This document shows, piece after piece, positions 22,937-43,419 of a stretch of 64,000 bases of DNA (position 1 is its first letter; every line of letters begins with the position of its first letter). Origin of the DNA: an uncultured delta proteobacterium. GTDB lineage: Bacteria > Desulfobacterota > Desulfomonilia > UBA1062. The notes beneath the pieces were generated by a model. The model was not told the DNA's origin. It made no database searches and saw only the letters and a list, made by a program, of their open reading frames with translations. The DNA lies in assembly GCA_963785235.1 (NCBI GenBank), contig CAWAUM010000010.1, forward strand, positions 84,365 through 148,364, in the 5' to 3' direction. The translations under genes were made by a program, and so were the position numbers.

Positions 22937-25900
22937 TTATTGCTGATCTAAAATATCCCTGATCTTCTTGGAGAATTCGGCCATGCTGAATGGTTTCTGG
23001 ATAAAGCCTTTGCATCCGTTTTTCATGATTTCCTTTGCCTGACCATCAAGACTGTAGCCGCTTGAAAGCAGCACCTTTACATCGGGGTTGACGCGGCGCA
23101 GGGTGTCGAAGGTTTCTTTCCCGCCGAAATCGGGCATGATAATGTCAAGGATCACAAGATCAATCTTACCCCGGGCCTGTTCATAAATCAGTAGACCTTG
23201 TCTTCCTCCTGATGCGCTCAACACCTTATAGCCGAGACCTTCGAGCATTTTTGAACCGATATCCAGGATCATCTCTTCATCGTCAATGAGGAGTATCGTC
23301 TCACGACCTCTCATGATCTCGCCATTTGTCTTTTGCTCGCCTGAAACATCTTTATCCGAGGCCGGGAGATAGATCATGAAGGATGTGCCGAGGTCCTTTT
23401 CGCTCTCTACATTAACGAATCCGCCGTGATTCTTGATGATACCATACACAGATGCCAAACCCAGGCCGGTTCCGCGGCCACGCTCCTTGGTGGTGAAAAA
23501 CGGCTCGAAGATCCTTATTTTTACAGACTCGTCCATTCCGATACCTGTATCCGTAACAGTCACCTTTACAAATCTGCCGGGCATGATTTCATAAGGACTC
23601 ACCTCAACCTCATCCAGATTGATATTTTCTACCGAGATGAACAGGTCACCGCCGCCCGGCATGGCCTGCCAGGCATTCACGAACAGATTGAGCATTACCT
23701 GTTCCATCTGCCCCCGGTCCACATCAACGGCCCAGAGTCCCTGGGCGATCTTGTTATGGATCCGGATCTCTTTCTTAGTCCGGCCGAACATCTCGGAACT
23801 CTTCTGAATGAATTCTCCAAGATGGGTAGGTTTAACCTCATACTTTCCCCCCCTCGCAAATCCGAGCAGCTGCTTTGTAAGGTCGGAGCCACGCTGTACA
23901 TATTCCTCAACACTCTTGAGGCGATCAAAGAATGGATGCGACTCATCAAAGTGCATGAGTATGAGGGATACATTGCCCAGGATACCCATGAGCAAATTGT
24001 TGAAGTCATGGGCAATACCGCCTGCAAGCGTTCCCACTGCCTCCATCTTCTGTGCACGGGTCAGCTGCTGCTCAAGGTTCTTCTTCTCGGTCATGTCGAT
24101 GAGAAAGCCCCTCAATCCGGCAGGCTTGTCGTCATGGTAGACACAGGTGGTATGCACCAGTGCAGGGAAGGTTGTCCCGTCCTTTCTCCGGGCCACATAT
24201 TCATTCAGACCAATCTTCTCCCCTCGCATGACCCTCTTATAGTTCTCCATCATCCGTTCATGGTCTTCCGGGGCCACCACATCCAGGACACTTATGCCCT
24301 GGTTCATCTCTTCGGTGGTGAACCCGAACCGTTCGAAGGAACTCTGGTTCACAAAGGTTAAGAAACCTTTTTCATTCGTTTCAAACACCGTCTCGGGCAT
24401 GAGGCTGGCCAGATCACGGAATCGCTCCTCGCTCTCGCGCAAAGCCTTTTCGGCATTCTTCCGGTCAGTGATGTCCATGAGTGAGGCGACACTTACCTTG
24501 CTGCCTGGTATGAGGGCTATGCTCAGAAAGATGTCCCTTGACTCACCTGAACGGTTTAAGAATCTGAATTCATAGGATCTGGGGACGGATTCGATCCCCT
24601 CCCGGCGCTCTTCATGGTAACGCTTCATCCTCTCCAGGTCTTCAGGAGAAACGAACGTAGTCCAGCTCATCTTGCCCTCGACCTCTTGGCGCAAGTAGCC
24701 CGAGAGCTTTTCGAAATTGGAGTTTACCAGCAGGACCGTCCTGTCCTCCCCGAGCAGCATTGAGGCATTCCCAGTGTTCTCAAAGATGGTGCGGTACTGC
24801 TCCTCGCTATCCCTGATTGCCTCCTCGATCTGTTTCCTCTCGGTGATGTCGGTCTGCGTCCCGATGATGCGGGCAGGGTTGCCGTCTTCAGACCATTGGA
24901 AGACCTTGCCCCGGTCAAGGACCCACTTGTAACTCCCGTCCTTGCATTTCACCCGGTGCTCACTGGTATAGACCGGCAGCTCTCCGCGCAGATGACGCTC
25001 CAGAATATTGTCCGACTGCTGCCTGTCCTCGGGATGGATCAACCTCGACCAGGCCTTAGGACTGTCGTCGATTTCGTTGTCCGTGTAACCGAGCATCTCC
25101 TTCCAGCGTCTGGAACGGTACACCTTTTTATTTATCAGATCATAGTCCCATACACCATCGCCTGCACCCTCCAGGGCGAATTGCCACCTCGCTTCGCTCT
25201 CCCGGAGTGCCTTCTCGGACCGGTTGCGCTCCGTAATGTCAATCATGGATGATACACTCTCTTTTGTGCCCGGGATCAAGGCGACACTCATGAAAAGATC
25301 CCTTATCTCTCCTTTGCGGTCCTTAAAACGGAACTCATAGGAGTTCGCTGCCGAGCCCGGATCATTGCGGCGCATCACGTGGTATCTCTTCATCCTCTCC
25401 AGGTCTTCGGCCACAACGAAACCGGTCCAGCTCATCTTACCTTCCAGTTCTTCTCCCGAGTATCCCGACATCTTCTCAAAATTTGAGTTGGCAAGGAGGA
25501 TCGTGGTATCTTCGGCTATGATGATGTTCGCCGTTGCAGTGCTCTCGAAGGTTGTCCGGTAGAGCTCTTCGCTTTTCCGTATGACCTCATCGGCCTTCCT
25601 GCGCTCTGTGATGTCCCGGGTGATACCCAGAATACCCGTGGGATTACCGGCTTCATCATACAGGATATTAATCTTCACCTCTGTCCATACCGTGGATCCA
25701 TCTTTGCGGATCATCTCGAGTTCGATGTTTTTCGTCCACGCTTTGCCGTGCATCTGCCCGCCGAGTTCCAGCAAACGTTCCCGAGCAAAGAGATCGGCTA
25801 TTCTCTGGTAGGATTCGGGCGTGAGGGATTGATCTATGGAATGCTTCATGACTTCTTCAGGGGTATATCCCCTGAGCTCCATAACAGAAGGGCTCACATA

Positions 25901-28720
25901 GACATAGTGCAAGTCGGTGTCGAGAACCCAGATAACATCCCGCAGGTTCTCGGCGAGCAGCCGGTAACGGCTCTCGCTCTCCTTGAGGGCCTGCTCGGCC
26001 TGGATCCTTTCCGTGATGTCTCTCCCTACGCCCCTGAACCCGGCAGGCTCACCCGATGTGTCTCGAATCAGCGATACTGACATCTCGATGACCCTTTTTG
26101 ATCCATCCTTCCTGATGAGCTCATGATCGACCAGGGTTTTTGGTTTGCCTATTCTATAAACATCGTTGAAGACCTGGAATAACTTCGTTGAGGTCTCTGA
26201 AGTGGAAATGGACCTGTAGTTCATACCGCAGAGTTCTTCACGGGTATAGCCGAGAACTTTGCTTAAGGAATCATTGAAAAAGGTGAAGTTGCCACTGAGG
26301 TCTGATTCGAGGTATGCCTCTTCCATGCTCTCGAGGATAGATCGGTACTTCTCCTCACTTACACGCAGCGCATCCTCAGCCTGTTTACGGCTGGTGATAT
26401 CCCTTACAACGCCACTGAACCCGATCGGTGCTCCATTGGCATCCCGCCTCAAGGATACAGAAGCGTCGACGTAAATCTTGTGGCCATTCTTTTCATTTAA
26501 TTCCCATTCGACGCTGCTGATAGGCTCCCCATCGAGAAAGACCTTATGGAATGCATTGAAAACCTTCTTGGTATTCTTATCATCGATATACTGGCGATAG
26601 TTAACCCCCATGAGCTCATCATGTGCATAGCCAAGCCGTTGTGCAGGCCTGGGATTGAAAAAAGTGAAGTTGCCCTTGAGGTCCACCTCATAGTATGCCT
26701 CTTCCATGTTGTCGAGGATGCTTCGATAACGCTCCTCGCTTTCCCGAAGGGCCTTCTCGGACCGTTTGCGCACGGTAACATCACGCACCAGCGTATTGAA
26801 CCCTATGGGCTGCCCCGATGCATCTCTCATGAGCCAGACAGACAACTCATTGTCATGAAGAGAGCCGTCCTTGTGGTTGACCTGGTAGTCCACCAGCAAC
26901 TCGGGTTTCCCTGTCTTGAAAACCCTGTTAAAGGACTCGAACATGAGCTTGGCTGTTTCAGGCGGGGCGTATGTGCGATAATTCATCCCGAGCAGTTCTT
27001 CCGGGCTGTATCCGGACATCCTGACGGCTGCATTGTTGAAGAAGGTGAAGTTACCGGCAAAATCCACCTCGAAATATGATTCCTCCATGCTTTCCAGGAT
27101 TCTTCTGTACTTGTCCTCGCTGATACGCAAGGCCTCCTCGGCCTGTTTGCGCTCGGTGATATCGATATGATTGGAAATACTTTCATTGGTCCCGGGTATG
27201 AGGGTAACCAGGGCAAGGATATCCCTGACCTCTCCTGTCCGGGTGATAAACCTGAACTCGTAAGATTCCGGCGCAGAGCCCGGCTTTTCCCGTCGCATTC
27301 TGTGATAGTTTTTCAGCCGTTCAAGGTCATCCTCGGAAATAAAGGATTCCCAGGTCATCTTGCCCTCGATCTCGTGGCGGGAGTAGCCCGAAAGCCCTTC
27401 GAAATTGGAGTTCGCAAGCAGGATTGTCTTGTCCTCTCCTATGATGATGGCGGCGTTGCCCGTATTCTCGAATATGGCCCGGTAGCGCCCCTCACTCTTT
27501 TTCAGGGCATCTTCAACCATTTTCCGCTCGGTCACATCCCTTTCCACGCCGCGAAAACCCTTTGGCTGCCCTGAAGGGTCCAGCAAGAGAGCGGCAGTCA
27601 TCTCATGAACCCGGACAGACCCATCCTTTTGAATTACTTCATAATCAACCGTATATTCAGGGTTTCTGGTTTTATAAATCCGGCTGTATACTTCAAGCAT
27701 CTGTTTTGCCGTCTCAGGGGTCATGTACTTGCGGTAATTCAATCCATGGATTTCATCCTGAGAATATCCCAGTCCTCTGCAGCTGGCCTCGTTATTGAAC
27801 GTGAAGTTGCCCTTGAGATCGAGTTCGAAATACCCTTCTTCGATATTTTCAAGGATTCCCCTGTACCTTTCTTCACTCAGGCGCAAAGCCTCTTCCGCCT
27901 GTCTACGATCATTGATATCCATGCATGACGCCACACTCTCGTTGGTGCCGGGTATCATGGCTATGGTCAGGAAGATGTAACGGAGTTCTCCGTAGCGATT
28001 CTTAAAACGGAACTCATAAGAACCAGGTGCCGATTCAGGGTTTTCCCTGCGCTGTGCATGGTAGCGCCTCATCTTCTCAATGTCTTCATCTGCGATGAAG
28101 ACAGTCCAGCTCATCTTTCCTTCCAGCTCTTCCTTGGAATATCCCGAGAGCCTTTCAAAATTCGAGTTCGCAAGGAGGATCGTTGTATCTTCTCCGATAC
28201 AGATGGATGCGTTACCCGTATTCTCGAAGATGGTGCGATAGCGCTCTGAGCTTTTTTTCAACTGTTCCTGGGCTTTCTTCCATGCAGTTATGTCACGGGC
28301 GATTCCCTGGATGGCATAGGGCTCTCCTGAACGATAAATGACAGAGGCCCTTGACTCCAGCCAGACAAAACTCCCGTCTTTGTGTCTGACCATATATTCT
28401 TCGGATTCCCTCTGTGTCCCTGTCTCCTTCAATTCCTGTATGGTTCTGAACACCTTGGGGATCTGCTCGTCTGCAAGAAGCGTAGTCAATGTGATATTTT
28501 TCAGCTCTTCTCTGGAGTATCCGAGCAGATTGAACCCGGCATTACTGGCATCAAGAAACCTGCCTTCAAAGTCGAGGATATAGACCACGTCAAAAGATCG
28601 CTCAAACAGGGCCTTGTAGCGCTCTTCACTCTCCCTGGCAGCCTCTATTGCCAGGCTGTGTTCCTGCTCAAGGTCCTTGAGCCTCTTTTCCAAGTCCTCA
28701 TAGCTGGGTTTCTCAAACAT
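22937..28720 (-). CDS. Cytoplasmic hybrid sensor histidine kinase with about 14 PAS/PAC domains, HisKA, HATPase_c and a C-terminal REC domain
   Basis: 1927 aa with no predicted TM. HisKA H-box AHDFNNLL, then a G-box/ATPase, then a receiver (LLIDDEEM...[10 protein letters not shown]). Ribosome-binding site GGGAGGAG. Confidence 0.9.
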
Positions 28721-29119: not shown

Positions 29120-30958
29120 TCATTTATTCCACAGGAGACTGTTTAGTCCCGAACTGCGCTGGGTTCGCCTGGCGATCGAAGAAGAGAAGATGTCTTCGAG
29201 GGCCCAGATCTCGATAGCGTCCCTGGCCCTGGTTATGCCCGTATAGACGAGCTCCCTGGTGAGCACAGGAGAGTCGCGCTCCGGTAGTATGAGCAGAACC
29301 CGGTCGAACTCGGACCCCTGGCTCTTGTGGATTGTCATGGCAAAGGCCGTTTCGTGTGCGGGCAGCCTTAAGGGCGAAATCTTCCTGACAGACCCGTCTT
29401 TGTCCATAAAGCAGGCGCGCAGGTCATCCCCCTCGCTCACGATGAGCCCGATGTCGCCGTTCATGAGCCTCAGGGTATAGTCGTTTTCCGTGACAAGCAC
29501 GGGCCTGCCGTGGTAGTGCAGCCTGCCGGGTTCAATGAGGCCCGCGCCCTGCAGGATCTCTTCCACCTTGCGGTTCAGGGCCGCTACACCATAAGGACCC
29601 TCGCGGACAGGGCTCAGGATGCGCAACGTATCGAAGAGGCGGAAGCGTTCATAAATATCCTCTGAGGCGAGAAAACCTCCATACCCCCTGGTAACAATCT
29701 CTTTCAGCGCCCTGTTCAATTCTCCCGGTAAAGGCAGGTCCTGCCAGCAAAGCTCTGCTCTGTGGTCTGAGTGGAGGATCTCAAGGGACCGGCCGATATC
29801 TCCCGAATTGACTGCCTCGCCCAGGGCGAAGATGGCGCTGTCTTTACTGAAACGGAAGGTCCGGGTGAGTTCCACAAGCGAATCCTGCATGCCGCCTTCG
29901 CCGCCTGAGGGCACCGTGCACCCTGCTGTCCTTTTCACAAGTCCGGCAAAGTCAGGCGAATAGGCATGGGAGGCGCCCACATCGCAGATATCCCCGAGCA
30001 CGTAGCCTGCCTGAACGGAAGCGAGCTGGTTCTTGTCGCCAAGCAGGATAAGGCGGGCCGTGTCCTTGAGGGCACGGACCAGGTTTGACATGAGGGCCAG
30101 GTCTGCCATTGACGCCTCGTCTATGGCGATAACATCGGCACTCAACGGATTTGCTGCGCCGTGCCTCGGCTGAGTTGACCCGGGAGAGAAGCCCAGGAGC
30201 CTGTGGATGGTGGTGGCCTCGCACGGGATCATGGCCTTTACCTCAGGTGCGCAGTCCATGAGTTCAAGACTGCGCCGGATGGACTCTTCGATCCTCCGGG
30301 CCGCCTTGCCGGTGGGGGCCGCCAGGGCGATCTTCAGGTGAGGCTCCTGCTCAAGGAGCAGGGCCATTATCCTGCAGACAAGCGTGGTCTTGCCCGTGCC
30401 CGGCCCGCCCGTGATCACGCATAGACCTCTTGAAACGGCAGCCGCAGCCGCGGCTTTGTGCAGGTCATGCCCGTCGGTCCCGTCCGGGGGAAACATTCGC
30501 GAGAGGCCCCTGGTGAATAGGGTCTCGTCAAAAGGCATGACCCGTGCGTTCAAACGCAGCAGAACCTCGGCCAATCTCCGCTCGTTCTCACAGGAGCGGT
30601 GGAGATAAAGCCTGCCCGCCTCGTCAAGGATGAGGGGGCGGTAATCGCCCGGGCCGCCCACGACCGTACAGGTCTTCAGGGCAGATATCCAGGCCTCAGG
30701 TGAAGGCAGTTCCAGTACAGCGGCCCCGAACTCTTTGCCCATCAGCCCTGCCCTGATATCGTTCAGATTCAGGCAGGTGTGCCCTTCCCTGCTGAGCCTG
30801 CTCACAAGGGCGGCAGCAAGGATGAGCTCCTTGCTGCCGGATTCTGAGAGCTGCACCATGAACCGGGCGAAATGCATATCAATGGGCTCGAAATAATCTT
30901 CTGCTGGCATCAGACCCTGTTCAACACTTTTCCTGGAATCAACGGCATCATGCGCCAT
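29120..30958 (-). CDS. recD: Exodeoxyribonuclease V alpha subunit RecD (intact)
   Basis: SF1 helicase motifs GGPGTGKTT...; 612 aa; terminal gene of a recC-recB-recD arrangement. Confidence 0.85.
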   Translation of the reverse strand: MAHDAVDSRKSVEQGLMPAEDYFEPIDMHFARFMVQLSESGSKELILAAALVSRLSREGHTCLNLNDIRAGLMGKEFGAAVLELPSPEAWISALKTCTVVGGPGDYRPLILDEAGRLYLHRSCENERRLAEVLLRLNARVMPFDETLFTRGLSRMFPPDGTDGHDLHKAAAAAAVSRGLCVITGGPGTGKTTLVCRIMALLLEQEPHLKIALAAPTGKAARRIEESIRRSLELMDCAPEVKAMIPCEATTIHRLLGFSPGSTQPRHGAANPLSADVIAIDEASMADLALMSNLVRALKDTARLILLGDKNQLASVQAGYVLGDICDVGASHAYSPDFAGLVKRTAGCTVPSGGEGGMQDSLVELTRTFRFSKDSAIFALGEAVNSGDIGRSLEILHSDHRAELCWQDLPLPGELNRALKEIVTRGYGGFLASEDIYERFRLFDTLRILSPVREGPYGVAALNRKVEEILQGAGLIEPGRLHYHGRPVLVTENDYTLRLMNGDIGLIVSEGDDLRACFMDKDGSVRKISPLRLPAHETAFAMTIHKSQGSEFDRVLLILPERDSPVLTRELVYTGITRARDAIEIWALEDIFSSSIARRTQRSSGLNSLLWNK

Positions 30959-30972
30959 TCGTTTTTTACCCT

Positions 30973-33900
30973 CTACTTGTCCTTGTTCATCAGCACTTCG
31001 CTCAACTTTACCAGGTTCTCTTCATCCGGACGGGCGCGGAAGATGCCGTACTCCGGCCCCCTGCCAGGATCAACACCCCGCAGGTACACGTAGAAGACCC
31101 CTCCGAAGTGCTCGTCATAGTTATATCCCTGCAGCCGCTGTTTCAGGTATTGATCCAGCGCCACGCAGTAGAGGTGATACTGGAGGATGTAGTTGTCCCT
31201 GATCATGGATTTCAGGAGTGCATCCTGGCTGTAGTCCTCCACTGTGTCACCCAGATGGTTGGACTTCCAGTCGATGAGATAGTACTTCCCCTCGTGCATG
31301 AAGACCAGGTCCATGAAGCCCCGAAGGAAACCTTTAACCGGTTCAAAGGTGAAGCGGGGGGTATTTGCCGGCATCCAGAGCCCCCTCTCCCTGTCCCTCT
31401 CCCGCAAGGGGAGAGGGGACCTTCATTGAGGGCATGCAGTGAGTAATGGCTTGCTCCAGGATACCGGGTGTGAGCTGATTCAAAGGGAACAGGAACTCCA
31501 GCTCGGTGAGCCGTTCTGCCTTAGTAACCAGGTTGAGACTTGTCACCCCCAGGTCGACGGTGAGAACCTACGCACCATACCGGTCACGGTCCCGGCCCAG
31601 GTCCTTTCGAAACCATGGCTGTGCGAGCATTTCCTCCACCACGGCCCGGATCGCTTCATTGTCCGCAGTGAATTCGATCTTCTCGAAGACCTCGTGAAGA
31701 AGCGTGCCTGCCCGGGCCCCTTTGGGGAAGGAGAAGATGTCTTTAACCCTCTCCCCTTTTTCTCCTGACCCATTTTTCATACCCTGCCACAGGGTGTCCC
31801 GGTCAGCTGCTTCACTGCCTTTGTGCAGGCCGTGGATGAACGCGGTGTAGCTGGCGATTCCCCAGGTGCGGTCAATGGCTCCTGGGAAGACCCGTGCTGC
31901 AGGTTCTTCCGAAGATAAGGCAGGCCGCGCCGCAGGTTCGGGCCGGCCATGGGGGATGTCCAGGACCCGGGCATGACCCGTTCTTGCGCCAAGGAATTCC
32001 TCCAGGCTACGCCGCAGGTCTGCTGCATCCGCGCCCTTCATGAGATGGGCCATGGCCGATCTCTCGGCCCCCTTCACCCTGCCCCAGGCCACATAGCACC
32101 GGTTCTTTGCCCGGGTGAGAGCCACATAGAAGAGCCTCACGTTCTCGGCCAGGGTCTCTTCCAGGGCCTTCCCCCGATGGCTTTCCTGCTCTGGTGAGCC
32201 CATGTCCAGCACAGCAGTATGGGCATCATCGTGGAACAGCACCCCCTCCCCCTTGTCCGGCTTTGCAGCGCCCCAGGCAAAGGGGCAGAACACCACCGGG
32301 AATTCGAGGCCCTTGCTCTTGTGCACGGTCATGACCCTAACCGCGTCGTCGTCGCTCTCGAGCCTGAGCTGGTACTCGTCGCTGCCGGGCATGCCCGGGT
32401 CCCTGCGCTCGGCAAGCCATTTCCTCAGGCCCTGCATGCCCAGCTTCTCAGGCCGCCTCCGCCTTGCCCAGGAGCTCGGCGATGTGGAGAATATTGGTGA
32501 GCGCCCGCTCGCCCGCAGACCATGCTCAGCAGGCGCGAGCGCACCCCCTGGCCGTCCAGGAGCCTCTTGATCATGGGCGTGAAGCCGGAGCGGGCCCAGA
32601 GCTCGTGCCAGTCCCGGAACTGCTCGATCCAGTTCTCCCATGCCGCTTCGTCAATACTGAGCGCATCCACGGCCGCAGGGTTCAGGGCAAAGATGCGGGT
32701 CATGAGTGCGGTGCGCACGAGCCCCTCGCGATACGGCTCGGCCAGGGCTGCAAGGAGCACCTCCATCTCGAAGGCCTCGCTCGAGAGAAACACGTTCTCG
32801 TCGCTGTAGAGCACGCAAGGGATGCCTGCTGCGTGCAGGCTGTCGCGGACCATGCGCGCCTGGGTGTTGGTGCGTACGAGCACAGCCATGTCCGAGGGCT
32901 TGAGTCCATCGTTACCGAGCTTCACAGCGCCATTGCTTGAGAGGTTCAGGAGCCGGGAGATCTCGAAAGCTACGGCCCTGCACACGGCCCTGCCCGCCTG
33001 CTCCACCGTGAGCTCGCGTGCCTCGCCTGCGTCCAGGTACCAGACCTGCAGCGGCCCTTCATCGAGCCCGGTGAGCGTCTTCCGGTCGGTCTTTGGCGCG
33101 GGCTCGGCCGCATCGAAGCGGATCCAGTCGAAGACAAAGGGATACTCCGCCTGTGCGAACACCGCGTTCACCGCTTCTATCAGGCCGGGATCGCTCCGCC
33201 AGTTGTGGATCAGGGTGTGCTTGTGTGCCTCAACCACGCTGTGGGCGGCCCGGGCATAGGTGAACACGTCCGCGCCCCGGAAGCTGTAGACGGCCTGCTT
33301 GGGGTCGCCGATGAAGAACAGGCATGATCCGGCAAAACACCGCGTGAAGATCTCGTACTGCAAGGGGTCCGTGTCCTGGAACTCGTCGATCAGGGCCGCC
33401 TTGAACCTTCCCGCTACCGCTCCGGCCAGCGCGCCACCACCCCGGGACCGCAGGGCCTGGTGCATCCTCAGGAGCAGGTCGTCGTAGTGCACGAGCCCCA
33501 GCTTCTCCTTGCGCCGCGCCAGCGCCGTATCCAGGATATGCGAAGAACTCGACCTTCAGCGAGGTGATCTCGTCCTCAAAGGCAGCGCTCAATGTATCGC
33601 CTGCCTCCTGCAAAGCCCCGCACAGGGCAAAGACCGGGTGTTCCGGCATGGTGGCGCCCTTTTTCGTGGCCTTCTTAATGGCGGTCGGCGTGAACTTTGC
33701 CAGGCACGAGGCCGCGGGCAGCGCCACGCACCCCATGGCCAGGTAGCGCTCCATGTCCGCCAGGTATCCCGGGACTTTTGGTGACCTTGTGGGTGCTCTG
33801 GTTGATGGTGTCCGTATCGCACATGAGCCGCTCCACCTCGCCCAGCGCGGTAGGCCATGCTGCGGCAAGTGCGGCAAAGGCCTGCCGGTACTCAGCCAGC

Positions 33901-34535
33901 AGCGGATCCAGCGCACCCTGACCGTCGGGTCCATCACGTGTGGGAATGATCTGTGATGCCAGGTTCCTCTGGCGCGCCAGGCCCATGAACCATTCCGGGC
34001 TCACCTTGCGGCCGCGGCAAAAGGCGATGAACTCAGGCACGGCCGCTGCCGTGATGCGCATGCGGTAGAAGTCGTCCGCCACACAGGCAATCATGTCTGC
34101 CTGGTCCGTGACCAGCTCGGTCTCGAAGGGGCTGAGCGTCTCGAAGGCCAGTTCCTTGAGCATGCGCTGGCAGAAGCCGTGGATGGTGGAGATGGCGGTC
34201 TCGTCGAACCTTGCCAGGGCGTCGTCCAGGATGCCGAGCGCCTGTGCCCGGTTTTCCACCTTCTCCAGGAGCCAGGCTATGAAGGGATCGTCGGAGGCAC
34301 CGCGCGCAAACGCATCACGGGCCTGGCGCACCTTGTCCCTGATGCGGGTCTTGAGCTCGTCGGTGGCCGGGACGGTGTAGGTGACCACGAGGATCGACTC
34401 CACGGGCATGTGCTGCTCCAGGAGGAGCCGCAGGAAGAGCGATGCAATGGTGTAGGTCTTGCCCGTGCCCGCGCTCGCCTCGATGAGGTGCGTGCCGGAA
34501 AGGCCTAAGCCGGTGAGGTCCAGGGGCTCTACCAT
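30973..34535 (-). pseudogene. recB: RecB (exonuclease V beta subunit) broken into at least 5 frame fragments
   Basis: N-terminal UvrD-like fragment 33675..34535 (SAGTGKTYT), middle fragments 33230..33937, 32425..33492 and 31568..32641 (VMTVHKSKGLEFP), C-terminal PD-(D/E)xK nuclease fragment 30973..31407 (LIDWKSN...Y). All collinear in different frames. Confidence 0.8.
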
Positions 34536-37500
34536 TTTCCGTTCTCCAGCCTTTCCAGGAGCGGGCCGTACACAATCATGGCCAGCTCACGAAAATCGTC
34601 ATCGAAGGGGTCAGCGCCTGCAAAGCAGATCCGCATGGCCGCATCCTCGCCTTCGCCGCTATTGTTCCAGCCTCCGGTCCATTCCTTACCCGCCGCCTGC
34701 ATGGCCCGCTCCACATTGCCGGTCTTCTTCATGTGCTCTGCATAGGCATACGAGCTTTTGGGGAAGAAAGGCAGCGGCCGGCACAGGCCCTGCCAGTACA
34801 CGTCCAGGAGCCCCTTCAGCACGGCAGAAGGCTCCTCCCCGGAGCTGATGCAGGCCTGCCCTGCCTTGTGGATGTGCATGCCCGCCACCTGCGCACCCGG
34901 GCTCACGGCCTTGAGCAGGAGCACGCTGACCCAGGCCCGCATGAGGTCGCCCGGTTTCAGGTCCGCATAGCGGAACGAGAGGAACCCGCCGCGGCCAAGA
35001 CAGTCCACGGCCCCGGTGATGGTGAAGGCGTCCACGGCCACGCTCACCTCTTTCCTGACCATCTCATAGCCCGCCATGGCCCGCCTGATGAGCGGGAGGA
35101 AGGCATCGATCTCACTGGCAATGCCTGCAAGCGCCAGCTCTCCGGGCACGCCGTGGGGCAGCACCCCTTCGGCCCTGAGCCGCGCCACGTCCGTCTCAAC
35201 TCCCTTGCCTGCCAGCCTCTCAGCCAGGATCCGCTGCTGCAGGCCGTATTGATCGAGGCCCGTTATGGCAAAGGGCTCCCGGTCGAGGAGTGCATCTTCC
35301 TCCCGGGGCAGCACTGCGCCCAGGCGGTGCCGCAGGAAGAACCGGGCCGGGTTCCGGAAGAACTCCAGGAGACGCTCCATGTCCACGCTCCGCAATTCTT
35401 CCTCGGGTTCGGAGATGCCTTACCGCCTTCCCCGGCCCTGCCTGTGATCCCGTGCGCAGCGCCCTGGCAGCGTCCGCATTGTCCCTGGAATAGCTGAACA
35501 GGCCCGTGCCTGCTGTGAAGTATTTGGGGTTGAAGGCCTGGAGGCAGTGGCGCTTCACCACGCACTGTGCTCACCGGGCCCTCCGGGCACGTAAAGGCCC
35601 TGTCCAGGTACTCCAGCAGGCTGCTCACCACCACCGAAGGCGGGATAGCGGCATTGTCCTGGATGCCCTGGCCCACATGGCTGATGAGAGCACGTTCCGG
35701 GCCGAGAGCAGGGCCTCGAGGAAGAGGTAGAGGTCGTCTTCGCGCCTGGACCGGTCGCCCTTGCGCGCCTGCATGGCCATGAGGTCGAGCCCGCTTGCGT
35801 AGTCCCTGCGGGGGAAGGATTCATGGTTCATGCCCATGAGGCAGATCACCTTGAACGGGATGCTCCGCATGGGCAGCATGGAGCAGAAGGTGACCCCGCG
35901 CTCCAGGAACCCGGCCCCTTCCGCAGCACTGCCGAAGGCGTTGCCCAGATGGTGCCGCACCACGTCGACAGCTCACCGCGCCGGTGAACCCGGCATCCCG
36001 CGCGATCTTCTCCAGGTCCCGCACCGCGGATTTCAGCCGCAGAAACTCACGAAGGGTCTCCTCATCCGCAGCAAACAGGTCGTCGATGATCTTGAGGAGC
36101 ACCTGTGACCACTCGCCAAACCCCCGCTCCTGCCTGAGCTCGTCCACTGCCGCAAAGAGCCTCTCCACGAAGTCCACGAAGCTGCCCAGGAGTTCTGCCG
36201 AGGCAGGGTCCATGCCGGCAAGGGCGCGATGCCCTCGAACAGCTCATCTCCCCCGGCCATGGCATAGCCCAGCAGGAGCCTCTTCAGGCCGAAGCCCCAG
36301 GTGTTCTCCTCGAACCCGGGCAGGCCCATCTGCTTCTTTATCACGACCGTCCCTGCCCCACCTGATATTCGCGCCTGTAACCCAGGCATGGACCTTGCGC
36401 ACATCCTCCTCGTCCATGCCGAACCGGGCCCGCACCGGCGCCTTGTCCAGCAGGTCCATGACCAGCGATGCCTCAAAGCGCTGTCCGGGCAGATCGAGCA
36501 CAGCCATGAGCGCATCCGCCAGCTGGGAGCTCCGCCTGAACGACCGGTCCGAGATGCTGTAGGGGATGCGGCGCGAATCCCCCTGTCCATGTCGAACACA
36601 GCCCGGATAAAGGGCGCATAGGCCTCGATATCAGGCGCCATAACCAGCACGTCCCGAGGCTCCAGCCCCTCAATTGCCATCATGCCCTTCCTGTCGTCCC
36701 CGCGAAGGCGGGGACCCAGGGATTCTGATAAAACCTGGATTCCCGCTTCCGCGGGAATGACGGATAAAGACTCGGAGGACAGAGGAGAGGGGGAACTCTC
36801 GAAGAGCCCCAGCAAGGTATCCAGCAGCACCTCCACCTCCCGCATAGGGCTGTGACAGGAGTGCACCTGAATGGAGCAGTCACCACGCCTCCACCTCTTC
36901 AGTCCCCTCATCGCCGGTAGTCCTCAGATTCAGGATGTCGTCCTGGACCCTTTCCAGCATGGTGGAACGCCCGCCCCCCACAAACAGATCCGTCTCCTCA
37001 GGCTCCAGATCGATGACCATGTCCAGGAAGTTCCTGCCAAGCCTGCCCATGCTGGCCAGGAGGTCGTTGCGCGATTCCATGTGCAGATCCGCCTCCGGCA
37101 CCCTGGCCGCGATCCTGGTGATGCGCCTTTCCGGCATGATGTCCGCCCAGTATTCCCTGCAGGGGTTCAGGCAGTAGAGGCTGACATCCATCAAAGCGGA
37201 AAGCCCCTTGAGCACCTCCAGATGGAATGCAGGCAGATACGAGATGCCGAAGATGGACACCCGCTCGGGCAGCTTCGACACATCCGGCCTGCGCAAGCCC
37301 GCGGCTGAAGAGCTGCTTGAGCCGGGCACGGTGGTTCGCCGCATCCCCTTCAACAATCTTGTTCCAGAGCACGGCCTGCCAGTTCTCCGGGTAGCCCGCA
37401 GGCGCACCGCCGCCCTCTTCCCACCCCAGCACGAGCTCGGGCCTGAATATGACATACTGGTCATAGATGTTCGCCATCATGGCGCTGAACTGGTAGAGCT

Positions 37501-37870
37501 TCATGCCCGCGGTGTCGCCCTGGAGGTAGTCCCTGATCCGGCTGAAGCCGCCCAAGCCCAGGAGCCCGGGCAGACAGTCCATGATGCGCAGCGTCATGGC
37601 ATCCTTTTCGAACAGGGCGGGCTGTGTGAACCCCGGCAGGATGCGCGAGAACATGTCCAGCACAAAGGCATTGGGAAACGGCCATTTGACGTTCGCGCAC
37701 ACGCCACTGCTGCGCGCCAACTCCATGGAGAGCCAGCGCTGCATGCCGCGGCTCTGCACCACGATGACCTCGGGGGCCAGAGGTGAGGAGAGCGGCTCGG
37801 ATAGAGACGCAGCAAGGGCCTGTGAAAGGACCTCGAGCCGGTTGCTCTCAATGAGTCTCAGGCCTGACAA
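34529..37870 (-). pseudogene. recC: RecC (exonuclease V gamma subunit) broken into at least 6 frame fragments
   Basis: N-terminal fragment 36998..37870 (MSGLRLIESNRLEVL...), then 36880..37464, 36033..36911, 35821..36213, 35625..35963 and 34529..35395. All collinear in different frames. Confidence 0.75.
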
Positions 37871-37960
37871 CAGACGCCTCCCACCATAGAATTATAGTGT
37901 GAGTAGTATAGCATGGATGGGGGTTGTCGGGAGTGGGAAAATGTTGTGGATAATTCCTTG

Positions 37961-38004
37961 GAGTTAACTGGGAGTTAACTGGGTTTAACTGGGGTTTAAC
38001 TGGG
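37961..38004. repeat. Four tandem 11-nt units (GAGTTAACTGG x2, GTTTAACTGGG x2)
   Basis: Read directly from the sequence. Lies between the recC start and the AraC stop. Confidence 0.7.
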
Positions 38005-38026
38005 GACGGGTTCACATTTCCACAAA

Positions 38027-39172
38027 TTATGTCGAGGTGTTTCCATCCGGTTGTACGAGTTCTTCCACAAGAGGATCGGTCGTCACATATTCATCCGAAG
38101 CATCTTTGAGGAGATTCGGAGGGAAGACCTTGATGATGGCCCTGCCCCTCCGGTAAGCCCTGGGTGTCGATCCGGTCCAGCGTCTGAACGCATGATTGAA
38201 CGCGCTCTGCTCGGAAAAGCCCAGCAGGAAAGCCATGTCGATGAACGACACTTCCGGGTCCTCCAGGAGTGCGTGCACCAAATCCTTCCTCGCCCGGTCG
38301 AGCAGCTCTGTGAAGGTCGTGCCCTCTTCCTTCAGCTTCTTCTGCAAACTCCTCACGCCCACGGCCAGCTCCTTTGCCACGGCATCGATGGTGGGGCGCC
38401 GGCCGTTCATCTTTGAGAGCGTCTTCATCACCCTATCCGACCAGGTGTCCGGGAGGTACATGTCATGGATCAGGCCCTGCGCATACCCCTCCAGCGTCTT
38501 CAGCAGCCCGGGGTCGGCCGCACGCACGGGCCGGGCTAGGTCCTCCACGGCAAGGACCAGGGCGCTCTCCTTCTGGCTGAACCTGAGCGGCGCCCGGAAG
38601 ATCCGCGCATGCTCGGACACGTCATCGGGCCGTCCATACCCGAAACGCACCTCCACGGGCCTGCACGAATCTTCCGTGAGGCGTACGAACACGGAATTCA
38701 GGACGCACAAGAGCGCCTCATCGGCATGACGGCCGAACCGCACGTCCTTCTGTGTGATCTCCCATCCCAGCAGTGCTTGGCCCTGCCCCGACACGATCCT
38801 CGGGCGCAAAGCGTCGTTCATGAGGTTGTGGTACCTGGCCAGCGCATCCAGCGCGCTGCCCACGGTGGGGCAGTTCATCACCACCACGAAGAGGATCTGG
38901 CTTGTCGTGACGTACTGCAGCTCTTCGGCAAAGTGCAGGCCGAAGTCCTTGTCCCCTGACAGGGAGGCGACCTCGTTCCATACCCTGTTGAATACATCCC
39001 CCCTTACCCTCGCCACGTGAACGTCCGGCAGGGATACATCCAGCCCGGCCGCAGCGAAGACGGCCTGCGCGTCGATGCCCTTGCCGGATGCATAGGCGGA
39101 CAGCATCCTGAGCAAGGTGCTTGATATGGTGGCGGTTCTTTCCTGGGCCTGCATAATTTCGTGGATTATCAA
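38027..39172 (-). CDS. AraC/XylS-family transcriptional regulator
   Basis: C-terminal AraC helix-turn-helix (LLGFSEQSAFNHAFRRWTGSTPRAYR). Confidence 0.8.
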   Translation of the reverse strand: MIIHEIMQAQERTATISSTLLRMLSAYASGKGIDAQAVFAAAGLDVSLPDVHVARVRGDVFNRVWNEVASLSGDKDFGLHFAEELQYVTTSQILFVVVMNCPTVGSALDALARYHNLMNDALRPRIVSGQGQALLGWEITQKDVRFGRHADEALLCVLNSVFVRLTEDSCRPVEVRFGYGRPDDVSEHARIFRAPLRFSQKESALVLAVEDLARPVRAADPGLLKTLEGYAQGLIHDMYLPDTWSDRVMKTLSKMNGRRPTIDAVAKELAVGVRSLQKKLKEEGTTFTELLDRARKDLVHALLEDPEVSFIDMAFLLGFSEQSAFNHAFRRWTGSTPRAYRRGRAIIKVFPPNLLKDASDEYVTTDPLVEELVQPDGNTST

Positions 39173-39265
39173 TTAATTTTCGTCAAAAGACAAGAATACT
39201 CGGTTCCAGACCGGCTATAACGCCTTCTAGATATTTCCATACCAGTGACACGAAAGGAGAAAACC

Positions 39266-39772
39266 ATGAGCGAACGGAACATACCAGTGAACAGGAGAGT
39301 GCACTGCAACCACACCATAGAGATCGAGGCGCCTGCGGAGAAGATCTTCCCGCTGCTCTGCCCGGTGGCGGAGTACGACTGGATCGACGGCTGGGACTGC
39401 AGGCTCGTGTATACCGGAAGCGGAGTGAACGAGGAAGGCTCTATCTTCACTGAGGAAATCATGGGGCCCGTACTCGCAGGTTCGGCCGCGACCTCAACTT
39501 GGGTCACCAACCGCTATGACGTGGAGAACCACCGGATATGGTTCGTCATCTTTATTACCGACCTGGCAGTGGTCAGGTACGATGTTGCACTCATCGAGAA
39601 GAAAAGCAGCCTGACACGCGTGGAGATGAACTTCGAGATCAGTGCCATGGACGAAAGGATCGGCGGCCTGGGCGATGAAGAAATCAGGACGCGCCTCATG
39701 ACCATCGTGGCGTTTCTCTCGGCGGCACTCAAGCACTACTGCGAGACCGGGGAGATGATGAAGGCGGCATGA
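39266..39772 (+). CDS. SRPBCC (Bet v1-like) family protein, tentative
   Basis: 169 aa with ribosome-binding site AGGAGAAAA. Fold assignment is from weak pattern only. Confidence 0.4.
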   Translation: MSERNIPVNRRVHCNHTIEIEAPAEKIFPLLCPVAEYDWIDGWDCRLVYTGSGVNEEGSIFTEEIMGPVLAGSAATSTWVTNRYDVENHRIWFVIFITDLAVVRYDVALIEKKSSLTRVEMNFEISAMDERIGGLGDEEIRTRLMTIVAFLSAALKHYCETGEMMKAA

Positions 39773-39801
39773 TTCAGTGCAGACAGGAAAAGGATAAGGC
39801 T

Positions 39802-40218
39802 ATGCAGACCAGGATCACGATCAAGGTGCGCGGGTACCACGCCGACGCCTTCGGGCATGTGAACCATGCGCGGTACCTGGAGTTCCTCGAAGAGGCCAGG
39901 TGGTCGTACTGTGAAGAGAACGGCATCATTGAGCGCCTCTTCTCGGCGAAGCAACTATTCCACGCCACGGTGAGTATAACCGTCAACTACAGGAGGAGCG
40001 CCGTGCCGGGAGACTCCCTCCTGATCGTTACCAGCGTATCCCAAAGGGGCGAACGGAGCTATACCATGAGCCAGCGGATCTTCCTGGGAGAGACCGACAC
40101 GCTCGTTACCGATGCCGAGGTGACGAGCGTGCTGCTGGACAGGGCCGGTGTTATTGTGCCGGTCGATGACGATGTCATGCGCATATGGCCGGACCTCTTG
40201 GACTGCCCGGGGCCATGA
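39802..40218 (+). CDS. Acyl-CoA thioesterase (4HBT/YbgC family)
   Basis: GHVNHARYLEFLEEAR hotdog-fold signature. Confidence 0.75.
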   Translation: MQTRITIKVRGYHADAFGHVNHARYLEFLEEARWSYCEENGIIERLFSAKQLFHATVSITVNYRRSAVPGDSLLIVTSVSQRGERSYTMSQRIFLGETDTLVTDAEVTSVLLDRAGVIVPVDDDVMRIWPDLLDCPGP

Positions 40219-40467
40219 GGAATGAATACGGGGTCTATTCATTCCGATCCGGTCCGAAGATCGTCCGATACTCTGATACAGTAGATGCGAGGAGTCTGAT
40301 TTCTGACATCATCACAATCCTCCTGAGAAATACTATTTCAGTATTTCTGAAACCGATGCAGCACAATTCAGGGTAATGCGCATCCCAGCCTTGGGCGCCA
40401 GGATCAATAAAGGGTCAGGTATTTTTTTCAAAGACAATACTCTACCCCTTTTCTCTGGATTCTCTTG

Positions 40468-40686
40468 CTATGCCGCCGGCTTCCAGTTGAAACTCAGCCT
40501 GCGTCCGCTTGCTGCACAGTCCCTCAGGTACAGGTTGATCAGGGTCTGGTAGGGGATGCCGGATTCATCGGACAGATCCTTGAAATACTGGATCGTCATT
40601 TCATCCAGCCGTATAGTCACCTGCTTTTTCAATCGTTTGGCATACGGATTCCGCTTGGCATTTGAAAAGTCATATTCCTTTCTCAT
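40468..40686 (-). CDS. brnA: BrnA-family (ribbon-helix-helix) antitoxin
   Basis: MRKEYDFSNAKRNPYAKRLKKQVTIRLDEMTIQYFK is the BrnA signature. ATG 40686 follows a GAGGTGG ribosome-binding site; the ORF-track start is GTG 40695. Confidence 0.75.
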   Translation of the reverse strand: MRKEYDFSNAKRNPYAKRLKKQVTIRLDEMTIQYFKDLSDESGIPYQTLINLYLRDCAASGRRLSFNWKPAA

Positions 40687-40775
40687 ATTCTCCACCTCTT
40701 GATGTACCCGATACCATGCTTGTGTCTGTTCGCCCTGTTCTTGTTTTCATCCCACTCAATTCGTAATGCATTCAT
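40683..40775 (-). pseudogene. brnT: Truncated BrnT (DUF497) toxin remnant, 30 codons
   Basis: Manual translation gives MNALRIEWDENKNRANRHKHGIGYIKRWRI*. The first ~20 residues match the BrnT N-terminal motif (FEWDENKNxxNxxKHG). The ORF then terminates overlapping the brnA ATG as ATGA. Confidence 0.55.
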
Positions 40776-40913
40776 ACATCATTTATAACTACATTGGCTT
40801 TACATTGCGAGTTTAACGACAAAAAGGGGACAGATTGATTTTTCTCGATTGGGCAATGGTTTGATCTGTTCTAATTGTCCCCCCCCTGTCAAGGACTGGC
40901 CCCCTTGCCTCTC

Positions 40914-41945
40914 TCAAGCCGGCCGATACCCGGTAAATGCATAATATTTGTTGCCCGGTATAAGATCTGTCGCGCAATTGCGTTCAAAGCCAGCTTCTGA
41001 CAACTGCTTCAGCATCTCATCCTTATCTGGAAGCCTCCCCCAGCCCTTGGTCGCTGCATGAATCAGATTCACAAGCTCAAACTCGATACTGCCGTTCCTG
41101 CATCCGGTGGTCAGAAGGATTCGGCCATTGGGCTTGAGAAGTTCCCGCAGATGTCTGAACAGCTCAATGCGCTCTTCGACCGGAAAATAGTATATATTGT
41201 TGTACAAGGTAACTATATCGAACAACCCAGGGTCACGGAAATTTCTCACATCTTCAACCACTATTTTCACGCGGTCTTCCAAACCTTTTGTTTGAACATT
41301 GCTGCGGGCTATTTCTGCAACCTGCGAATCAAGCTCCAATCCGAGCGCATTGAGCCTGTTGTTCTTGTCCGCTGCATACATAACATAACCCGCATGCCCG
41401 CAACCCACTTCAAGCAATCGAGTATGTCCTGATATGGGAAAACTGCGATCGATCAGTTCAAACACAAAGGGCTCAAGGGTTCGACTTGACCGGGCGATGA
41501 GATCACCGTATTCGCTGTGCTGATAGGCAGGGTCCCAGACGAGCCCCTGTTCCAGTTTTCCAGGTGTTTGCAGAATATAGAGATGATGAAGGCCCGCAAC
41601 TTCACGAACCAGGGCGCGTATCGCATCGTTTTCAGGGGCGGCCAGTTTTTTTGCCAGAAAACCCCGCAGAGAGTATCCCGCATCATCCTTTTTCAGCACA
41701 CCCAGGCGGACACCCAGTCCGAGCCAGGCCTCGGTTGCATTGCAGAGAGATGGGTCTTTCGCGAATGCACCGGTGAGGCTGCCAAGCGGAACAGGACCAC
41801 GGGATAACTTTCCAAGAATGACGCTGTCTGCCAATGAAGCAAAGAAACACAGACGGTAAAAAGAGGTAAACAGCATCTTGAACCGGAGCAACAGCAGCAA
41901 TCTTCCGCCATTTATCAATGACGCAACTGTTCGTAAGTTCATCAT
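40914..41945 (-). CDS. Class I SAM-dependent (O-)methyltransferase
   Basis: LLEVGCGHAGY motif I and a downstream acidic motif. Start ATGATG at 41945 with a GGAGGG ribosome-binding site. Confidence 0.7.
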   Translation of the reverse strand: MMNLRTVASLINGGRLLLLLRFKMLFTSFYRLCFFASLADSVILGKLSRGPVPLGSLTGAFAKDPSLCNATEAWLGLGVRLGVLKKDDAGYSLRGFLAKKLAAPENDAIRALVREVAGLHHLYILQTPGKLEQGLVWDPAYQHSEYGDLIARSSRTLEPFVFELIDRSFPISGHTRLLEVGCGHAGYVMYAADKNNRLNALGLELDSQVAEIARSNVQTKGLEDRVKIVVEDVRNFRDPGLFDIVTLYNNIYYFPVEERIELFRHLRELLKPNGRILLTTGCRNGSIEFELVNLIHAATKGWGRLPDKDEMLKQLSEAGFERNCATDLIPGNKYYAFTGYRPA

Positions 41946-42077
41946 CCCTCCTTCATACAATGAACCCCGACCGCTTCTATGTATGCGGGGTTGGAGACAG
42001 TACCGTGCTGATGGACAGGAGCGGGAAGATCCCATTGAGGATTCCCCCGCCCTCATGTCCATACATGTCTTAGCAGC

Positions 42078-42728
42078 TCAGTAGGTCCAACCGGCGGCAA
42101 AGGCGATCAGGTTCATTATGATGGGCACTGAATAGAAAAAGACCAGGAGGCCGATCTTGGCCTTCATGGTCTTTCTCGTGATCACCCATATGGCTGCACA
42201 GAAGAAGTGGAAGTACCCGATGAGGAAGATCAGGGGGATGCCCTTGAGCGAGAGATACCAGTAGGGATACTCCCACACCAGGTGGCCGCCCATGTTCAGC
42301 AGGCACTCCACGAAGACGCAGAATACCGAATAGCCGATGGCCCAGAACCACATCTCCGGGATACCCAGGATCTTCACCTTCTTGTTCTCGGTGAGGGTGT
42401 GGTAGAAGATGATGCCCACGATGGCGAACATGAACATGATCTCGATGTTCCAGCCCACCATGGTGCGCAGGGCCGTATCACCCGGTGTGGTCCAGAATGC
42501 GCTGCGCTGGGTGAAGTGCAGCACCCAGCCGTTCCAGCTCTCGTTGAAGAAATCCACCCCGAAGATGGCGGCACCGGAAAATACCGCATTCCAGTTTCCG
42601 TTCTCCTTGGCCAGTTTGATCTCCTTGGTGTAGATGTAGATAACGATGGCCAGAAGCGGAATGATGTACCACTTGATCATGGTAAGGTCCCTGAGTCCGT
42701 TAAGTGCCTGCAGTGTAGCCTCGGTCAT
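42078..42728 (-). CDS. Polytopic membrane protein of unknown function
   Basis: About 6 TM segments, 216 aa. Same strand as, and between, the TetR regulator and the methyltransferase. Confidence 0.5.
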   Translation of the reverse strand: MTEATLQALNGLRDLTMIKWYIIPLLAIVIYIYTKEIKLAKENGNWNAVFSGAAIFGVDFFNESWNGWVLHFTQRSAFWTTPGDTALRTMVGWNIEIMFMFAIVGIIFYHTLTENKKVKILGIPEMWFWAIGYSVFCVFVECLLNMGGHLVWEYPYWYLSLKGIPLIFLIGYFHFFCAAIWVITRKTMKAKIGLLVFFYSVPIIMNLIAFAAGWTY

Positions 42729-42774
42729 GGATATACCCCCTCTTTGTGTTTTTATTTCATGCCATCAATGGCAG

Positions 42775-43374
42775 TCATACCGGAAGATCCTGGGGTGTCC
42801 TGCATATACCCCGCAGGACTATCTTCATTCCCTCCTCGTACATGCGCGCAGCGGAGATCCCCTCCGACTTCACATACCGCTTGATGAGAAACATGATGTA
42901 GATGGAGAAGAAAAGTTCAGAGGTGTGGTCCACATCAACAGGCAGGAAGCGGCCCTCGGCGATGCCCTGGGCAATGATGTTCTTGATGAGCTGCATGGCT
43001 CCGAGGTTGATTTCGTAAAAGCGGTCTTCCCGGGGGGTCAGGGTGAAGATGCTGGGGTCTTTTATCAATACGGCGCGCAGGTCCTCATGGTCCACGAGGT
43101 ATTCGAATGACAGCTTCGCCATGACCGAGAACTTCCCGACCACATCGTCCACACCGGCAACGGCTTCGGCTACCGTTTCGCGCCATTGCTGCAGGGCTAG
43201 GCTCACGGCCTTTTCGTAGAGGTCACGCTTGCCGGACACGTAGAAGTAGATATTCCCCTTGGTCATACCCACTTCTGCAGCCACATCATCCATGGTGGTC
43301 TTCTGGTACCCGAAGCGGGCGAACAGCCTCAGTGAGGCTTGAAAGATCTCATTTTGCTTTTGGTGCTTGTCCAT
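42775..43374 (-). CDS. TetR/AcrR-family transcriptional regulator
   Basis: N-terminal helix-turn-helix FGYQKTTMDDVAAEVGMTKGNIYFYV. The listed start is TTG 43386; ATG 43374 is preferred. Confidence 0.8.
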   Translation of the reverse strand: MDKHQKQNEIFQASLRLFARFGYQKTTMDDVAAEVGMTKGNIYFYVSGKRDLYEKAVSLALQQWRETVAEAVAGVDDVVGKFSVMAKLSFEYLVDHEDLRAVLIKDPSIFTLTPREDRFYEINLGAMQLIKNIIAQGIAEGRFLPVDVDHTSELFFSIYIMFLIKRYVKSEGISAARMYEEGMKIVLRGICRTPQDLPV

Positions 43375-43386
43375 GGGCACCTTCAA

Positions 43387-43419
43387 TTAATTGACTAATT
43401 GACTCAATTAGTCAATTAA
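43387..43419. promoter_or_regulatory. 33-bp near-perfect palindrome; probable TetR operator
   Basis: ttaattgactaattgaCtcaattagtcaattaa, symmetric except for the centre base, 13 bp upstream of the TetR start. Confidence 0.65.

Follow-up and report, generated by a model that had tools for sequence, protein, structure and literature searches.

The 16 frame breaks that interrupt recC and recB in the window (the whole stretch of 64,000 nt analysed here) are probably errors of the sequencing or assembly consensus, and not mutations carried by the organism. At face value, they depict a relative of predatory bacteria which is losing its main pathway of double-strand-break repair and recombination. 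A preliminary description of this DNA had offered two readings, an ongoing pseudogenisation of RecBCD and assembly indels concentrated in GC-rich sequence. The latter is the better-supported, and fits the data better than pseudogenisation.

The genes involved are the following:

29120-30958, minus strand: recD, an intact ORF of 612 aa (TIGR01447)
30973-34535, minus strand: recB (exodeoxyribonuclease V beta), full content, seven single-base frameshifts (TIGR00609, alignment to L003)
34529-37870, minus strand: recC (exodeoxyribonuclease V gamma), full content, nine single-base frameshifts (TIGR01450, alignment to L003)

The minus strand from 30973 to 37870 is resolved into many short frames by both the ORF listing and three-frame translation. 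In an NCBIfam profile search the fragments are collinear, those of recC spanning TIGR01450 end to end, those of recB positions 6-1174 of TIGR00609. This, and the end-to-end alignment to the intact relative L003, bear out the early view that the two genes are collinear and complete in content. recD, which had been described as intact, is indeed full length (positions 8-596 of 597 of TIGR01447, 540 bits, cut-off 310). The 7-nt overlap between recC and recB recurs in intact relatives, and the RecC N-terminus 'LSGLRLIESNRLEVLSQ' fits the 'MSGLRLIESNRLE' start of homologs. The corrected RecB translation carries the Walker A motif 'GTGKT' and the nuclease motif 'DLVF...YYLIDWKSN'. A RecC covering the whole profile, a RecB combining an SF1 helicase domain with a PD-(D/E)XK nuclease at its C-terminus, and a recD beside recB identify the locus as RecBCD; what the assembled sequence lacks is uninterrupted recB and recC frames. 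After correction, 967 of 1087 aligned RecC residues (89%, L003 residues 1-1105 aligned) and 1005 of 1184 RecB residues (85%, all 1185 L003 residues aligned) are identical to L003. The intact RecD has 516 of 613 residues (84%) in common with its L003 counterpart, and no internal frameshift. The intact proteins of another relative, L001, are 78-86% identical.

Breaks were positioned with an alignment that allows for frameshifts, the intact L003 RecC and RecB serving as references. Nine reside in recC and seven in recB, 12 being +1 and four -1 single-base shifts; the 'at least 11' initially counted was an underestimate. In recC, the alignment puts the +1 shifts at 37285, 36885, 36333, 35970, 35568 and 35420, and the -1 shifts at 36580, 36220 and 35686; in recB, it puts the +1 shifts at 33779, 33535, 32520, 32450, 31624 and 31384, and the -1 shift at 31565. 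They are given below with their state in L001 and in the closest relative, L002 (~95% nucleotide identity):

37285-37287, minus strand: recC +1 (C), not in L002 or L001
36885-36886, minus strand: recC +1, not in L002 or L001
36580-36584, minus strand: recC -1, a G run reduced from G6 to G5, the sole break within a long homopolymer
36332-36333, minus strand: recC +1 (C), window-specific
36220, minus strand: recC -1, window-specific
35970-35972, minus strand: recC +1 'AGC T GTC GAC', identical in L002, not in L001 or L003
35686-35687, minus strand: recC -1, L002 having a +1 two bases away
35567-35568, minus strand: recC +1 (C), not in L002
35416-35420, minus strand: recC +1 (A), not in L002
33779-33781, minus strand: recB +1 (C), not in L002 or L001
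33535-33537, minus strand: recB +1 'GCA T ATC CTG', L002 having an extra base three codons upstream
32516-32520, minus strand: recB +1 (G), not in L002
32450, minus strand: recB +1 (T), not in L002
31622-31624, minus strand: recB +1 (A), not in L001
31565-31571, minus strand: recB -1, relative to L001 and L003
31374-31384, minus strand: recB +1, adjoining a GC-rich palindrome (CCCTCTCCC cttgc GGGAGAGGG)

The spectrum is made mostly of insertions, and one break in 16 falls in a long homopolymer. Among the listed contexts, no motif shared by the insertion sites was found, CCWGG, GATC and homopolymers included. Once the frame is restored, ~2,270 codons contain no in-frame stop. No codon-level indels separate recB from that of L003, and differences in recC length are confined to a variable palindromic insertion:

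36670-36790, minus strand: in-frame insertion of ~38 aa in recC, with two perfect hairpins and no frame break

This insertion varies among relatives; the window and 26 fetched loci host no copies of the hairpin element other than those at the same recC site. The TGA at 35823-35821 of the majority consensus was considered as a nonsense mutation and discarded, since the stretch around it is wrongly framed and intact relatives have the same TGA. Similarly, a three-way DNA alignment pointed to 33537 as a second frameshift shared with L002, which codon-level inspection rejected.

The comparison with recBCD of related genomes, suggested in the preliminary description, was carried out. recC and recB are open in L001 and L003-L011, and broken in L002, whose 19 frameshifts (18 of them +1) fall in 18 cases at positions other than those of the window. 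Only the break at 35970 is exactly shared; the other 15 of the window are not. The record of L002 is named 'contig_29811', in the style of long-read assemblers. Judging from contig names, L001 is a SPAdes (NODE) assembly, L004 and L005 are MEGAHIT (k141) assemblies, and L003 and L006-L011 come from JGI. None of the intact relatives is of the same strain, the closest being 88-91% identical at the nucleotide level. The L001 ORFs cross two 100-N gaps, and their intactness was retested piece by piece. Both gaps coincide exactly with the stretches of recC and recB that are highest in GC, a placement consistent with loss of short-read coverage at these stretches.

Frame breaks are not confined to recC and recB. 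At least three unrelated genes of the window are broken likewise, by seven further shifts (six +1, one -1):

12701-13799, plus strand: branched-chain amino-acid permease, livH/M-like (BPD_transp_2), +1 near 13118 ('YLAIATL|GFG')
15205-16429, plus strand: Peripla_BP_6 binding-protein paralog, +1 at 15643, -1 at 15927, +1 at 16090, no stop
43995-45420, minus strand: CoA-binding/Succ_CoA_lig gene, three +1 (45272, 45068, 44702); the L002 copy is intact (473 aa)

The Peripla_BP_6 paralog is 73% identical to its intact neighbour at 16524-17720. The notion that genes other than recC and recB are uninterrupted is only partly true: it holds for recD, and fails for these three. In turn, L002 has a broken copy of a gene whose window copy is uninterrupted, and an intact copy of the CoA gene. 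The region 38027-40242 was examined as a further fragmented gene, and discarded because it contains an intact AraC-family regulator and an SRPBCC-like gene.

The segment is GC-richer than the window, as had been noticed, with values of 0.639 for recC and 0.627 for recB against a mean of 0.537 (sd 0.068) in 201-nt windows. Local GC content at all 19 indels tested in recC, recB and the CoA gene ranges from 0.57 to 0.69; the mean, 0.63, falls within roughly the highest 10% of values in the window. The part of the early reading that invoked indels in GC-rich sequence is sustained by these values; the idea that GC content by itself explains the pattern is not. recD (0.598) and the AraC-family gene (0.608) have similar GC content and are clean, and GC alone is therefore insufficient as a predictor of breaks. 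Errors are patchy, and GC-enriched at the breaks, without being fully explained by GC content.

Purifying selection acts on the frame-corrected recC and recB as strongly as on intact recD and on an intact relative. Substitutions which occurred on the window branch after the split from L002 number 79 synonymous and 49 non-synonymous (62% synonymous), against 27-28% synonymous expected from neutral simulations. The excess is significant in both recC (p=1e-13) and recB (p=4e-4), and persists downstream of the shared frameshift (33 synonymous vs 24, p=4e-7). The window value matches that of intact recD (65%) and exceeds that of the intact L001 branch (53-54%). The L002 branch (51%) also lies above the neutral expectation, which is 26-28% over the two branches.

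These data bear directly on the hypothesis that the ancestor shared by the window strain and L002 had already lost functional recC and recB, which then decayed independently in the two lineages, with recD surviving. Some observations speak for it. An identical frameshift is found at 35970 in two assemblies ~5% apart, the genes are fragmented in both members of this small clade and intact in remoter relatives, and breaks are ~5-6 times denser in recC and recB than in flanking genes, in the window as in L002. Yet, both branches have been under purifying selection since the split, also downstream of the shared break, and roughly three nonsense substitutions would be expected on a neutral window branch, where none is seen. 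Judging from its dN/dS, the window branch can accommodate some 14-50 neutral substitutions, to be compared with 16 indels, several-fold more than the indel-to-substitution ratios usual in bacteria. Natural bacterial indels are deletion-biased and associated with runs, and the insertion bias observed here runs counter to this trend. Moreover, recD is intact and constrained, and the same kind of lesions is found in unrelated genes. Neither relaxed selection (dN/dS near 1), nor nonsense substitutions or larger deletions, two marks of genuine pseudogenes, were detected in recC and recB. An ongoing pseudogenisation of RecBCD, as first proposed, is hence unlikely.

The break at 35970 deserves separate consideration. 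Under independent random errors, an identical break would arise by chance with an estimated probability of ~1%, which is at odds with a simple artefact; a systematic error, or else a mutation truly present in the ancestor, is therefore needed. Possibly, this +1 is a real and recent mutation inactivating recC in the clade, and all other breaks are assembly errors. The exact coincidence in position and base is in line with this possibility, as is the finding of every other break in one assembly only. However, codons past residue 626 are still under purifying selection in both branches, and a systematic, context-specific error made in two assemblies of the same technology would explain the shared break equally well. 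Also counting against a real mutation, the out-of-frame stretch that follows 35970 reaches the TGA at 35823-35821, where recC would be truncated. The mixed scenario is accordingly improbable.

It is similarly improbable that the breaks are all real, and that RecBC is being lost, in parallel and very recently, by both members of a small Bacteriovoracaceae clade (the window strain and L002) through an unusual insertion-biased, non-homopolymer mutational process which struck other GC-rich genes and left recD and ruvAC intact. Finally, the idea that the frameshifts are real and decoded by programmed frameshifting or transcriptional slippage, so that functional RecB and RecC are made, accounts for the perfect conservation of the encoded protein once the frame is corrected, but is extremely improbable, because no slippery motif or homopolymer context is common to the 16 sites, even L002, at 95% identity, does not conserve the sites, decoding would call for +1 as well as -1 shifts, and no system is known to decode so many shifts within one operon.

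Consensus error thus remains the preferred reading. Unrelated genes are affected likewise, and the relatives' assemblies judged to derive from accurate reads are free of lesions. According to this reading, the recC-recB-recD operon of the window would be normal and recently functional, belonging to an uncultured Bacteriovoracaceae-like bacterium, and the consensus errors would be mainly spurious single-base insertions located in GC-rich patches poorly covered or poorly polished. The source assembly is plausibly a long-read or hybrid one, in which weak short-read coverage of GC-rich sequence may have left patches uncorrected. Frameshifts due to small indels are described as a well-known fault of metagenomes assembled from long reads (10.1101/2021.08.23.457338; PMC9262707). 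Nanopore errors, as presented in PMC9262707, are typically errors in homopolymer length, and the insertion-dominated, non-homopolymer spectrum of the window departs from this classic signature.

Since the loss is argued to be an assembly artefact, no conclusion about loss of RecBCD should be drawn from this genome. In the window assembly and in the related ENA contig, the frameshift errors clustered in GC-rich patches would make pseudogenes seem too numerous and the genomes less complete than they are. The lineage-specific synonymous fraction, the count of nonsense substitutions and the indel spectrum, taken together, provide a read-free test able to separate errors from decay with a few related sequences.

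The locus may be compared with three known systems. Gene order and the 7-nt overlap are the same as in the recC-recB-recD operons of the intact L003, L004 and L006. In relatives recC and recB are single ORFs (1105-1146 aa and 1185-1232 aa), whereas the window carries 16 frameshifts. True bacterial pseudogenes are found in decaying genomes, as those of Mycobacterium leprae and of recent symbionts. Like the window genes, they are collinear remnants with multiple frameshifts and intact neighbours; in contrast to them, the window shows no nonsense mutations, dN/dS relaxation or larger deletions, and its indels are biased toward insertions and not deletions. The indel frameshifts of long-read and hybrid metagenomes, as described in the proovframe report (10.1101/2021.08.23.457338) and PMC9262707, differ from those of the window in that the latter are mostly non-homopolymer insertions, and strongly patchy. 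The likeness is otherwise close: conserved genes are split by single-base indels, several unrelated genes are struck, relatives with short-read-style names are clean, and L002, named in the long-read style, is damaged at other positions.

Between 30973 and 37870 the minus strand carries no long ORF, and overlapping open segments are chained across three frames. In an NCBIfam search the fragments are collinear with the recC (TIGR01450) and recB (TIGR00609) profiles. Frameshift-aware protein-to-DNA alignment to the intact RecC, RecB and RecD of L003, the locus of a relative, located 16 single-base breaks, 9 in recC and 7 in recB, in line with the minimum of 11 given in the preliminary description.

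37285, 36885, 36333, 35970, 35568, 35420, minus strand: six +1 shifts in recC (alignment to L003)
36580, 36220, 35686, minus strand: three -1 shifts in recC (alignment to L003)
33779, 33535, 32520, 32450, 31624, 31384, minus strand: six +1 shifts in recB (alignment to L003)
31565, minus strand: one -1 shift in recB (alignment to L003)
29120-30958, minus strand: recD, full length (TIGR01447, 540 bits)

recD shows zero shifts in the same alignment, and is intact as first described. Frame-restored recC and recB contain no in-frame stops, and RecB no codon-level indels, relative to L003. Residues identical to L003 are 967/1087 in RecC, 1005/1184 in RecB and 516/613 in RecD, and the broken genes are therefore conserved at least as well as the intact one. 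Content and organisation are those of an ordinary RecBCD operon, all the family features being present, uninterrupted frames excepted. Insertions outnumber deletions 12 to 4 among the breaks, and a long homopolymer is found at one break only. The segment is indeed GC-richer than the window (0.639 in recC and 0.627 in recB vs a mean of 0.537; 201-nt windows), and local GC at the breaks averages 0.63, approximately the top tenth of the window.

The comparison with recBCD of the closest relatives, earlier proposed as a check, was run on loci retrieved by a RecD genome scan (L001) and by protein searches (L002-L005 and L006-L011). In L002, the closest (ENA contig 'contig_29811', ~95% identity), recC is shifted 11 times and recB, where covered, 8 times; +1 shifts make up 18 of these 19, and a single one, at 35970, coincides with a window position. 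L001 is an uncultured Bacteriovoracaceae MAG whose contigs are named in SPAdes style; it has 88-91% nucleotide identity to the window and shows zero frameshifts across the covered pieces of the operon. Its two 100-N gaps, at 1737-1836 (replacing 744 nt) and 3610-3709 (replacing 810 nt), correspond to window 35772-35029 in recC and 33253-32444 in recB, the GC-richest parts. Intact recC-recB-recD operons reside in L003 (JGI) and in L004 and L005 (MEGAHIT-style names), where RecC is 1105-1146 aa long and RecB 1185-1232 aa; RecB is intact also in L006-L011 (JGI; 73-87% amino-acid identity).

With a GC of 0.60-0.64, the entire operon (29120-37870) stands out as a GC-rich island from a lower-GC genome. 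The intact L003 operon (10001-18909) is equally GC-rich (0.60-0.62 vs 0.48-0.50 in its flanks); high GC in the operon is therefore of long standing, unconnected with the breaks, and possibly stems from ancient horizontal acquisition. A PAS-rich sensor kinase (1927 aa, 22937-28720, minus strand) lies directly downstream of recD, as in L003 (19370-23227) and L004 (19228-23441), and the recCBD-kinase neighbourhood is thus conserved. Upstream of recC the structure differs between the window (37941-45521) and L002 (267-5267), despite 95% identity. L002 lacks the ~2.9 kb (37941-40824) in which the AraC-family regulator (38027-39172) and SRPBCC-like gene (39245-39772) of the window lie, and it has blocks 45521-43997 and 43885-40824 in reversed order. 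A stretch of ~1.1 kb (46870-47990, GC 0.43) has a convincing ORF on neither strand.

Other long genes had been described as uninterrupted. This holds for the kinase and the RND pump, and recD, ruvA, ruvC and many more among the genes checked are free of shifts, but three further genes are frameshifted.

12701-13799, plus strand: branched-chain amino-acid permease, +1 shift near 13118
15205-16429, plus strand: Peripla_BP_6 paralog, +1, -1 and +1 shifts, stop-free
43995-45420, minus strand: CoA-binding/Succ_CoA_lig gene, three +1 insertions, intact (473 aa) in L002

The Peripla_BP_6 paralog is 73% identical to an intact tandem copy (16524-17720). The reverse case also occurs, L002 carrying insertions in a gene that the window keeps intact. 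Together the affected genes bring the window to 23 or more single-base shifts (18 are +1), which fall into three patches (12.7-16.4, 31.4-37.3 and 44.7-45.3 kb).

Substitutions on the window branch were counted in codons after frame correction, leaving out those adjoining frameshifts; L002 served as the sister and L001 or L003 as the outgroup. Mutation simulated on the same codons gave a neutral expectation of 27-28% synonymous. Synonymous vs non-synonymous changes are 55 vs 27 in recC (p=1e-13 against neutral simulation) and 24 vs 22 in recB (p=4e-4). Intact recD in the same lineage is 65% synonymous, and the intact L001 branch 53-54% in recC and recB. Relaxed constraint is thus not indicated. 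Zero nonsense substitutions were seen on the window branch vs ~3 expected under neutrality. Ongoing pseudogenisation, one of the two explanations initially offered, is hence not supported: recC and recB display neither relaxed selection nor nonsense mutations, the marks of a pseudogene, and unrelated genes are broken in like manner.

The breaks are most probably an assembly artefact, and all the artefact tests that were run came out accordingly for recC and recB. Consensus errors are indicated because patchy, insertion-dominated single-base shifts hit otherwise constrained genes, because their positions differ between two close assemblies, the window and L002, and because they are absent in every relative with a short-read-assembler-like contig name. 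Small-indel frameshifts are a known problem of long-read metagenome assemblies (10.1101/2021.08.23.457338; PMC9262707). In GC-rich stretches a drop in accurate-read coverage may have left the long-read consensus uncorrected, as suggested by the breaks at high GC and by the failure of L001 to assemble recC and recB where they are richest in GC. The original proposal of assembly indels in GC-rich sequence is favoured to this extent, but GC alone is insufficient, since recD (0.598) and the AraC-family gene (0.608) are unbroken.

One break fits poorly with an artefact. At 35970 an extra T ('AGC T GTC GAC') is identical in the window and L002, a coincidence estimated at ~1% under independent random errors. 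It is either an error that this sequence context provokes systematically or a genuine mutation inherited from an ancestor; against the latter, purifying selection persists 3' of the break on both branches (window branch, 33 synonymous vs 24 non-synonymous, p=4e-7). That the clade of the window and L002 is really losing RecBC, very recently, in parallel and with a bias to insertions, is improbable.

Variable in-frame insertions occur at a single site in recC (36670-36790, minus strand), between 'LLDTLLxLFE' and 'LEPRDVLVMAPDIE', and at the same site in L001 (728-830), L004 (~11159), L005 (~7841) and L009 (~7725). The DNA encoding the 38-aa insertion of the window ('...SESLSVIPAEAGIQVLSESLGPRLRGDDRKG...') forms two perfect hairpins, TTCCCGC-GGAA-GCGGGAA and GTCCCCGC-CTTC-GCGGGGAC; neither the window nor the fetched loci contain copies elsewhere than at this site. 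Among relatives compared at this site, P0124, P0125, P0132, P0142 and P0150 lack an insertion, and P0122, P0123, P0127 and P0130 carry differing or longer ones, up to ~95 aa, with peptides of 'SPSPQSSPARGEE' type, as translated palindromic repeats typically give. Another GC-rich palindrome, CCCTCTCCC-cttgc-GGGAGAGGG, lies in recB (31375-31425, minus strand), where it codes for 'PSPLAGEGQGEG' and adjoins one frameshift; between about 31570 and 31518 the window aligns poorly with L001.

Natural bacterial indels are usually deletion-biased and run-associated; the spectrum of the window is the opposite, insertion-rich and mostly outside long homopolymers. Indels and substitutions stand in bacteria at roughly 1 to 10, and 16 indels against the only ~14-50 neutral substitutions allowed by the window branch dN/dS exceed this ratio several-fold. 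The non-homopolymer insertions differ also from the classic nanopore signature. The recC site, in turn, looks like a hot spot at which REP/MITE-like palindromic elements enter an intact gene in frame, and its insertion is reminiscent of the Rickettsia palindromic elements.
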